Shown here piece by piece: positions 14,688-14,728 of a stretch of 64,000 nt of DNA. A program made the position numbers and the translations under genes. The notes beneath the pieces were generated by a model, which saw only the letters and a program-made list of their open reading frames with translations, had not been told where the DNA came from and searched no databases. The DNA is taken from the NCBI GenBank assembly GCA_021781965.1, contig JAJXVU010000003.1, positions 15,880-79,879 on the forward strand. The letters are read 5' to 3'. Every line of letters starts with the position of its first letter. Position 1 is the stretch's first letter. The stretch comes from Pseudomonadota bacterium (GTDB lineage Bacteria; Pseudomonadota; Gammaproteobacteria; UBA1113).

Positions 14688-14728
14688 GTAACTACTCACC
14701 TTTTTTCAAGAAAAGCCCGTATTGGGCG
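14688..14728 (-). promoter_or_regulatory. conserved ~40-nt leader motif ending at the start codon (shared with der and hisS)
   Basis: Sense-strand sequence AATACGGGCTTTTCTTGAAAAAAGGTGAGTAGTTAC-ATG. Near-identical motifs lie at 42770-42810 and 45940-45980. Confidence 0.35.

Follow-up and report, generated by a model that had tools for sequence, protein, structure and literature searches.

The DNA analysed here, a 64-kb stretch of contig JAJXVU010000003.1 from a Pseudomonadota bacterium (hereafter the window), carries three copies of a short motif directly in front of the start codons of lysC, der and hisS. All three copies lie on the minus strand, measure 37-49 nt each and stop 0, 1 and 1 nt short of the ATG of lysC, der and hisS, respectively. 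They end in GAGTAGTTAC, for which three exact matches exist in the window (14688-14697, 42771-42780 and 45941-45950). Between this sequence and the start codon there is nothing at lysC (ATG 14687), a T at der (ATG 42769) and a C at hisS (ATG 45939). On the minus strand the lysC, der and hisS loci read ...CCCAATACGGGCTTTTCTTGAAAAAAGGTGAGTAGTTAC, ...CTCAATATGGGCTTTTCTTAAAAAGAGGCGAGTAGTTACt and ...TTAATATGGGCTTTTGTCGAAAAAGGGGCGAGTAGTTACc, respectively, each followed by ATG. Comparison with related genomes identified the motif as the truncated right end of a family of transposable elements of the miniature inverted-repeat type (MITEs) of uncultured Legionellales-like gammaproteobacteria.

The window was searched with an nhmmer profile built from the five full-length copies of this element that we found in relatives. 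Only three matches were obtained: 14688-14736 at lysC (E=2.7e-8, profile positions 128-177 of 177), 42771-42814 at der (E=9.8e-7, positions 133-177) and 45941-45977 at hisS (E=2.5e-6, positions 141-177). Because the profile matched only the three motif places, and the full degenerate pattern was matched 0 times in 100 shuffled sequences, the motif is not a chance likeness. An earlier interpretation made from the letters of the window alone (the sequence-only reading) had pointed to the three copies, and their placement is confirmed here. The gapless consensus that it proposed matched the hisS copy in our window search and missed those of lysC and der, since the copies differ from one another by single-base indels. 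The lysC and der copies also reach further 5′ than proposed, to ~49 and ~44 nt. A repeat search grouped the lysC and der copies as family D14, and BLAST of the lysC copy against the other copies aligned its part 14688-14730.

The genes behind the motif encode proteins with the expected Pfam domains of LysC, Der and HisS, and their N-termini, including MAEYIQAIRGMNDVLP of HisS, are common to orthologues starting at the same ATG. For lysC (start codon 14685-14687, minus strand), the orthologues P0001-P0007 start at this same conserved position, in agreement with the sequence-only reading, which had moved the start from an upstream GTG to ATG 14687. Moreover, in the close relative L023 an in-frame TAG and 8 nt directly precede the lysC ATG, so that no space is left for an upstream GTG start. 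The N-terminus encoded at the der start codon (42767-42769, minus strand) is conserved in all orthologues. For hisS (start codon 45937-45939, minus strand) an identical product is called on ENA contig L001, and an exact HisS match was found in a metagenome contig only. Window LysC is 67-69% identical to proteins labelled 'Legionellales bacterium' or 'Coxiellaceae bacterium', and Legionella_OMP paralogues are present in the relatives. The window itself thus appears to stem from an uncultured Legionellales-like gammaproteobacterium.

Upstream of lysC lies a NIF3/DUF34 gene, whose TAG stop (14766-14768) is separated from the MITE fragment by a filler at 14737-14765 (minus strand). The gene upstream of hisS encodes a RodZ-like HTH_25 protein; here the motif copy starts within the TAA stop of that gene (45976-45978) and shares its final two bases. 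After hisS the cluster continues with yfgM (TPR_21), bamB (PQQ_2) and der. Just 5′ of the der fragment stands a unit of a repetitive extragenic palindromic (REP) family, taccgagccgcgaccgccagggagcgggtg, at 42823-42850 on the minus strand (repeat families D4/D5), as the sequence-only reading had also noted.

To find the motif elsewhere, one genome per species was scanned with the pattern GGGCTTTT-N3-5-AAAA-N3-7-GAGTAGTTAC, which gave 11 loci. One of the 11, in a Bacteroidetes metagenome-assembled genome (MAG), shared nothing beyond the pattern and was taken as a chance match. The remaining loci belong to six gammaproteobacterial MAGs, one labelled Legionellales and the others Gammaproteobacteria or Proteobacteria only. 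The genes that follow the motif in these relatives are pnp, a parA-like gene, ndk, recA, a folP-like gene, two others, der and hisS. When the 200 nt upstream were aligned, the motif proved to be the terminal stretch of a far longer repeat. Five complete copies were found, 176-177 nt in length, which start with GTAACTACTC or a variant of it and end with GAGTAGTTAC. The terminal inverted repeats (TIRs) GTAACTACTC...GAGTAGTTAC are perfect in L006, and the left-end variants of other copies are GTCACTATTC, GTAATTATTC and ATAACTATTC. Direct repeats of 8 bp flank all five full-length copies. Two of these target-site duplications (TSDs) are perfect (CTATTTAA/CTATTTAA and AAAGGGTA/AAAGGGTA) and three have one mismatch (CCTTGATC/CCCTGATC, GGTTAAAG/GGTTGAAG and AGCCATTT/AACCATTT). 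Another copy, located in L013, lies between 8-bp repeats without mismatch, GAGCTTTC. The whole element is a near-perfect palindrome that folds into one long hairpin (-65.8 kcal/mol, z=-7.07). In addition, internally deleted derivatives of ~120 nt (L004), 83 nt (L009) and 75 nt (L010) were found, the last of which retains both ends and is flanked by a direct repeat matching at 6 of 8 positions.

As criteria for a MITE we used a non-coding length below about 300-400 bp, TIRs, a TSD of fixed length and variable sequence, and dispersal together with presence/absence polymorphism. The element is short and non-coding, has TIRs and 8-bp TSDs, occurs as dispersed copies at unrelated loci in the six MAGs and has empty sites in relatives. 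The TSDs were assessed on the full-length copies of the relatives, the window copies being right ends only. By inspection, reading frames across the element are not conserved between copies; a small open reading frame (ORF) starting from the conserved ATG of the central tip was considered and rejected, as its frames and stops vary. We therefore classify the element as a MITE: it is small, its termini are inverted, its duplications keep one length while their sequence varies, and its copies are scattered. The family is previously undescribed. The suggestion of the sequence-only reading that the motif might be the conserved end of a small mobile element was thus correct: the motif, TIR included, forms the right terminus of a MITE of 176-177 nt, which stands between 8-bp TSDs in related genomes. 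A palindrome of the REP type, as associated with RAYT proteins (GTAG-tagged, 20-40 nt, no TSD), was rejected, since the element has 177 nt, TIRs and 8-bp TSDs. GTAG does occur within GAGTAGTTAC, but the architecture is unlike that of REP sequences, and the true REP family of the window is a separate one. Rfam searches gave no match in the window at the gathering score, and none when a complete Legionellales copy was searched with E-values as high as 1 allowed. A plasmid search with the full copy gave no match, and neither did scans of metagenomes and of viral sequences with the right-end pattern.

Two copies in relatives lie in unusual surroundings. In L013 a full-length MITE (252-425, with the TSD GAGCTTTC) sits at the lptC/lptA junction, where lptA is called with 237 aa, compared to 177 aa in L022. 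The call is longer because its frame runs through the MITE, which could mean either an annotation error or a protein extended at its N-terminus. In L007, an uncultured Legionellales MAG, the MITE upstream of recA (6083-6294) is split at profile position 142 by a GC-rich palindromic repeat of ~95 nt, and thus repeat families nest.

Similar elements are known from other bacteria. Correia elements (CREE/NEMIS) of Neisseria are short palindromic MITEs near genes that occur in full and internally deleted forms and whose ends alter the expression of neighbours; in being short, palindromic and gene-adjacent, with full and internally deleted forms, they are like the MITE described here. They have a TA duplication and 26-bp TIRs, and carry promoters, IHF sites and sites of RNase III processing. 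Their TIR sequence is unrelated to that of our element, and they are not known as Shine-Dalgarno (SD) donors to essential genes. Correia elements are also mentioned in PMC11602168. QMITE2 of Coxiella burnetii has TIRs, variable direct repeats of 7-11 nt and a long hairpin, is intergenic and exists in full and truncated forms (PMC5896051). Compared by description only, it resembles our MITE in these traits, including the direct-repeat length, in a related host clade (Legionellales/Coxiellales) and in a size of 150-190 bp. It differs in that it holds a GTAG REP that is the target of IS1111 and lies mostly in 3′ untranslated regions, and no ribosome-binding role at the 5′ side of genes is described for it (PMC5896051).

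With regard to mobilisation, the closest likeness is to ISDge4 of Deinococcus geothermalis, an insertion sequence (IS) of the IS66 family, ISBst12 group, whose TIRs are GTGACTACTCAGCA and GTAACTGCTCAGCA and whose direct repeat measures 8 bp (PMC12898284). Over the first 10 nt, each ISDge4 TIR agrees with GTAACTACTC at 9 positions, with starts of the form GT(A/G)ACT(A/G)CTC, and both elements have an 8-bp TSD. Unlike an IS of the ISBst12 group, the MITE has 177 nt, no transposase gene and a near-complete palindrome, and the likeness is confined to the ~10 terminal nucleotides. On the basis of these 10 nt and one published element, we provisionally suggest that the family may be mobilised by an ISBst12-type (IS66-family) transposase.

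At the centre of the full element lies a strand-asymmetric hairpin tip of ~35 nt, AAAAAGCGGAGTT-N10-12-AATGAGCATTTT, whose nucleotides have a wider distribution, in elements that differ in their ends and duplication lengths. They occur in at least 120 metagenome stretches from many environments (L025-L144) and in Pseudomonas and Halomonas plasmids (L145, H1-H15), the reference centre being that of L006:1421-1597. Among the matches listed, the elements sharing this tip resemble the Legionellales MITE only at the centre (profile positions ~58-126). Such elements flanked by YTAR in Pseudomonas and metagenomes have the tip and the long-hairpin architecture in common with the MITE, but their palindromic arms and termini are unrelated and their flanking repeats are of 4 bp (CTAA/CTAA, CTAG/CTAG and TTAG/TTAG), not 8 bp. 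The blocks CAAGGC and TAACGCAG beside the tip are also conserved and are not complementary to each other. Among the matches listed, the tip shows no preferred orientation with respect to the genes beside it (18 ++, 18 --, 17 convergent and 8 divergent). For the Pseudomonas-type relatives there is no Rfam family, and a literature search on the tip sequence returned nothing relevant and no published name. Since the window fragments lack the tip, it is irrelevant to them.

We then compared the three loci of the window with orthologous loci of graded relatives, gathered by exact-protein look-up. At lysC, the site is empty in L023 (LysC 98%, ~92% nucleotide identity to the window), where the NIF3 stop TAG is followed by ggctactt and the ATG. 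The same holds for L022 (LysC 94%; TAG, ggcagact, ATG) and for L015 (LysC 86%; TAA, aaagagtctgct, ATG), a MAG that itself has full-length MITEs. The motif is also missing before lysC in L016 and L017, and only the window is filled, with a gap of 78 nt. At der, the site is empty in L018 (TAGgagcggacATG), L019 (TAAgagagtaacATG), L020 and L021 (native GAGGAA), and orthologous copies of the motif fill it in L008, L009 and L024 as well as in the window. At hisS, the site is empty in L018 (18-nt gap) and L020 (1-nt gap) and filled in the window, L008 and L024; an orthologous copy is also present in L001. The native gaps at empty sites are thus 1-18 nt long, and the ancestral NIF3-lysC gap, whose place the fragment and the filler now take, measures 8-12 nt. 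With gaps this short, an intergenic insertion must lie against the start codon, and this is why the copies abut the ATG. The motif is thus a lineage-specific gain at each of the genes; the gains at der and hisS are older, and that at lysC is more recent or else allelic.

The sequence-only reading had also considered a shared translational operator, and had named the orthologous upstream regions of relatives as the comparison that would decide against it if the motif were lacking there. Such a dedicated cis-regulatory leader, through which CsrA, a ribosomal protein or a small RNA would co-regulate lysC, der and hisS, could account for the same placement at three start codons, for the purine-rich box and for the conservation of the der copy described below. 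However, the orthologous genes stand without the motif in L015, L018, L019, L020, L021, L022 and L023, the last being the ~92% identical genome, and the sequence is part of a TSD-flanked mobile element that precedes unrelated genes such as pnp, parA, ndk, recA and folP. There is also no Rfam match. The CUUUU/AAAAG hairpin that had been proposed does have its complementary runs, but the leaders fold no better than shuffled sequences (z = +1.07, +1.31 and -0.12). Binding by CsrA finds no support either, as GGA is lacking from all three copies (AAAAAAGGTGAG, AAGAGGCGAG and AAGGGGCGAG). Taken together, we regard an operator as very improbable.

The 5′ sides of the fragments differ between lineages. 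At der, L009 has kept the remainder of the right arm (83 nt in total) and L008 and L024 have kept ~72 nt and carry a different stretch of ~40 nt containing GTAGACTACTC where the window has the REP unit; the window itself has kept 44 nt beside the REP insertion. Judged by its resemblance to the left terminal repeat of the MITE, GTAGACTACTC in L008 and L024 is possibly a left TIR. The 8 nt to the left of this putative TIR in L008 (TGTGTTGT) and the 8 nt to the right of the element (TATGTTAC) agree at 5 of 8 positions, which weakly hints that the duplicated target may have included the der ATG. In the lysC gap of the window, the final 43-49 nt are MITE end. When the sequences to the left of the fragments at lysC and der were aligned locally with the left arm of the MITE, no similarity was significant against shuffles (p=0.19-0.90); an inverted fragment of L013 was the sole one to reach p=0.047.

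This part of L013 deserves mention in its own right. In L013/L014 (9950-10000; 89% LysC identity) GAGTAGTTAC occurs 18 nt upstream of the lysC ATG, followed by aagAATACGGGtagCTTT, and is probably an inverted left end. aagAATACGGGtagCTTT echoes the variant AATACGGGCTTTT that is specific to the lysC copy of the window; this may reflect an independent insertion, a rearrangement or coincidence. A REP sequence adjoins the lysC MITE fragment in L013 as well. At the empty der site of the 75%-identical relative L019 (1332-1349), TAAGAGAGTAAC stands before the ATG and agrees with the MITE tip GAGTAGTTAC at 7-8 of 10 positions. This is probably coincidence, although a target preference or a convergent spacer could also produce it.

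How the fragments came to be so short can be explained in two ways. The 37-49-nt module might itself spread, by recombination, gene conversion or one-ended (abortive) transposition. This would fit a lysC copy that is recent, being absent from the ~92% identical relative, yet already truncated and without a TSD. The left limits of the three window copies also fall within 12 nt of each other (profile positions 128, 133 and 141), and L013 has AATACGGG...CTTT beside the lysC ATG. On the other hand, neither a mechanism nor a donor copy for such a module was identified, and the graded deletion derivatives of ~120, 83, 75 and 72 nt, at the same or other loci, are what progressive decay predicts. We therefore consider a self-spreading module improbable, if somewhat less so than an operator, and favour insertion of complete MITEs followed by loss of their left parts.

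The position of the fragments suggests what they do. They fill the whole region from -1 to -37 of conserved, intact genes, and for this reason we infer that translation of lysC, der and hisS is initiated from them. The lack of structure beyond that of shuffled sequences agrees with such a role. In each copy an A-run is followed by an SD-like box: AAGGTGA at 14696-14702 for lysC, AGAGGCGA at 42779-42786 for der and AGGGGCGA at 45949-45956 for hisS (all minus strand). With an assumed canonical 16S rRNA 3′ tail as anti-SD sequence, the predicted pairing energies are -8.5, -7.8 and -8.6 kcal/mol, respectively, compared to -2.4 to -5.2 kcal/mol at the empty lysC and hisS sites and to a generously computed median of -6.8 kcal/mol over the window ORFs. 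The GAGG box noticed by the sequence-only reading does exist and plausibly has a function, though that of a ribosome-binding site gained by exaptation and not that of a regulon signal. A literature search on SD sequences supplied by MITEs found nothing relevant.

The conservation of the fragments was compared with that of 4-fold degenerate sites in the window, L008, L009 and L024, where pairwise identity at such sites is 0.73-0.82 and 55% of the der 4-fold sites are invariant across the four lineages. The der copy has 8 variable columns out of 41, whereas 18.2 would be expected from the 4-fold sites (P=7e-4), and its last 24 nt at the 3′ end are identical in all four lineages. For the hisS copy, 10 of 45 columns vary against 12.8 expected (P=0.23). 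Alternatively, the fragments might be neutral debris, the tips only filling space, with translation maintained by upstream coupling or start-codon context and conservation reflecting short divergence or a low mutation rate. The hisS result fits this explanation, as do the long distance between SD core and ATG, the folP-abutting copy of L004 with a pairing of only -4.5 kcal/mol, and the tightly coupled ancestral arrangement with its gaps of 1-18 nt. However, the motifs now put 37-90 nt between stop and start, a distance at which coupling is weakened. Conservation of the der copy is significant even though the sequence 5′ of it was rebuilt in three ways, and all three window copies pair at -7.8 kcal/mol or stronger, a value that 6% of random window 25-mers reach. 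Neutral debris may account for the copies at hisS and lysC, but agrees badly with the data for der, and as a general explanation we consider it unlikely, though less so than the other alternatives.

A further option, also raised by the sequence-only reading, is a portable promoter in the element end that drives the downstream genes. Promoters directed outward are common at the ends of IS and MITE elements, and the full-length copies have a TAAGAT-like hexamer deeper in the right arm. Nevertheless, a scan confined to the sigma-70 consensus (-35/-10 with 16-18-nt spacing) found no hexamer pair in the full copies of L006 and L003 or on the lysC coding strand. The truncated window copies do not have the TAAGAT region, and a motif that ends at the ATG leaves no room for a leader with a separate SD sequence. 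A terminator scan made alongside gave nothing relevant. We thus give a promoter cassette very little weight.

We consider it probable that MITE copies were inserted into tiny gaps, were truncated to their right ends and now provide lysC, der and hisS with their ribosome-binding regions. The comparisons show that the motif is a MITE end, that its presence varies between relatives and that the window copies are truncated, whereas the ribosome-binding role, selection for retention of the tip and an order of full insertion before deletion are deduced. The motif consists of the TIR GAGTAGTTAC and 27-39 nt of sub-terminal sequence of a non-autonomous transposon. Copies of this transposon entered three very short gaps in the window lineage, NIF3-lysC, bamB-der and rodZ-hisS, and the left part of each copy would later have been lost or overwritten, at der by the REP insertion. 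The surviving 37-49 nt, with an A-rich tract, an SD-like box of the form (A/G)(A/G)GG(T/C)GA and an unstructured spacer, would then serve as the initiation region. Loss of the left arm would also remove a -66 kcal/mol hairpin from the operon, which is a plausible reason why only truncated copies persist.

Several observations weigh against this explanation or parts of it. The window holds no full-length copy, left end or TSD, and for this reason 'insertion then deletion' is a reconstruction. The first 29-35 nt of the window lysC gap match neither the MITE (p=0.22-0.61 against shuffles) nor other collected sequences. Among the collected loci, matching end pairs 0.06-4 kb apart were absent apart from the MITEs themselves, and no cognate transposase was located there. 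An apparent preference of right ends for facing gene starts was dropped, because right ends are all that the search pattern can detect; where both ends are present, the orientations stand at ~7:3. The window has no 16S gene from which the anti-SD sequence could be taken. At -16 to -13, with 12 nt between it and the ATG, the SD core is farther from the start codon than is typical, and for hisS the conservation of the copy does not exceed the neutral expectation. Finally, the stronger SD sequence of ATG-abutting copies is suggestive only: 3 of 4 independent abutting loci pair at -7.8 kcal/mol or stronger, compared to 1 of 7 free copies (one-sided Fisher p ~0.09), the other six of which pair weakly (-2.5 to -3.5 kcal/mol). 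This could be a subfamily effect, as L007 has a strong variant that does not abut a start.

The left ends of the MITE, read outward (L003:1068-1244, L006:1421-1597, L011:3869-4045 and L012:1013-1187), have SD-like tracts 7-8 nt from the tip. These tracts, GGGAGGGAG, GGGAGGA and AAGGGGGA, have predicted pairing energies of -7.4 to -12.8 kcal/mol, compared to -2.5 to -3.5 kcal/mol for the consensus right end. With such a strong tract at the left end, the element could donate a ribosome-binding site in either orientation. Our searches covered right ends, and ATG-abutting left ends could be found only within the collected loci.

A stronger version of this explanation, which we advance only tentatively and hold to be rather less probable than its negation, is that the MITE terminus serves as a translation-initiation cassette which is both portable and selectable, and which one lineage has recurrently domesticated to bind ribosomes at essential genes (der and hisS). 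Both der and hisS are essential in bacteria generally. Insertions into ultra-short operon gaps would then survive only because the tip replaces the displaced SD sequence. The tip would subsequently be tuned from GGCGCGAG to GAGGCGAG, GGGGCGAG or AGGTGAG and come under purifying selection, and the palindromic remainder, a hairpin of -66 kcal/mol within the operon, would be deleted.

Apart from the MITE fragments, the window harbours other repeats. The REP-like family ACCGAGCCGCGACCGTYAGGGAGCGG, often in inverted pairs, has at least seven window copies and occurs at 24857-24920, 42823-42850, 50972-51075, 53432-53621 and 56550-56696. One of its units lies within the MITE remnant at der. This family has widened short gaps within clusters; for instance, ndk and rlmN are 137 nt apart in the window and 9 nt apart in the ~90% identical L024. 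A second family of ~122-135 nt with GTATACTC...GAGTATAC-like ends occurs at 8815-8948, 26074-26381, 36987-37247, 38235-38367 and 55143-55277 of the window and at 4494-4630 of L002, and is shared with a Lake Mendota MAG at 82-93% identity. Its copies are sometimes in tandem (122-nt spacing), and one lies between tRNA-Ser and tRNA-Arg. Between lysC and csrA (9167-9400) the window has an ORF of 1201 aa without a Pfam match (9729-13334, minus strand), with acidic tandem repeats of 42-45 nt at 12123-12265. In L013, L022 and L023, csrA follows lysC at a distance of 217, 387 and 932 nt, respectively, without a gene of this type, and L022 has a small toxin-type gene pair at this place. The ORF looks like a lineage-specific insertion and possibly encodes an effector-like protein.

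In conclusion, what appeared as a shared leader of three genes is explained as transposon debris, which guards against calling a regulon that does not exist and against annotating the wrong start for lysC. Transposon debris put to use is in itself a fairly ordinary case. The analysis adds a MITE family of uncultured Legionellales-like bacteria that had not been described and that is provisionally linked to transposases of the ISBst12/IS66 type, and its fragments are usable as strain or lineage typing markers in this clade. It also offers a natural example of essential genes, der and hisS, whose entire ribosome-binding region would have been replaced by the tip of a mobile element within a short evolutionary distance. 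Empty and filled alleles exist at ~92% genome identity. If the tip has indeed been tuned and selected, MITEs would be able to rewire translation initiation within operons, beyond their effects on transcription.

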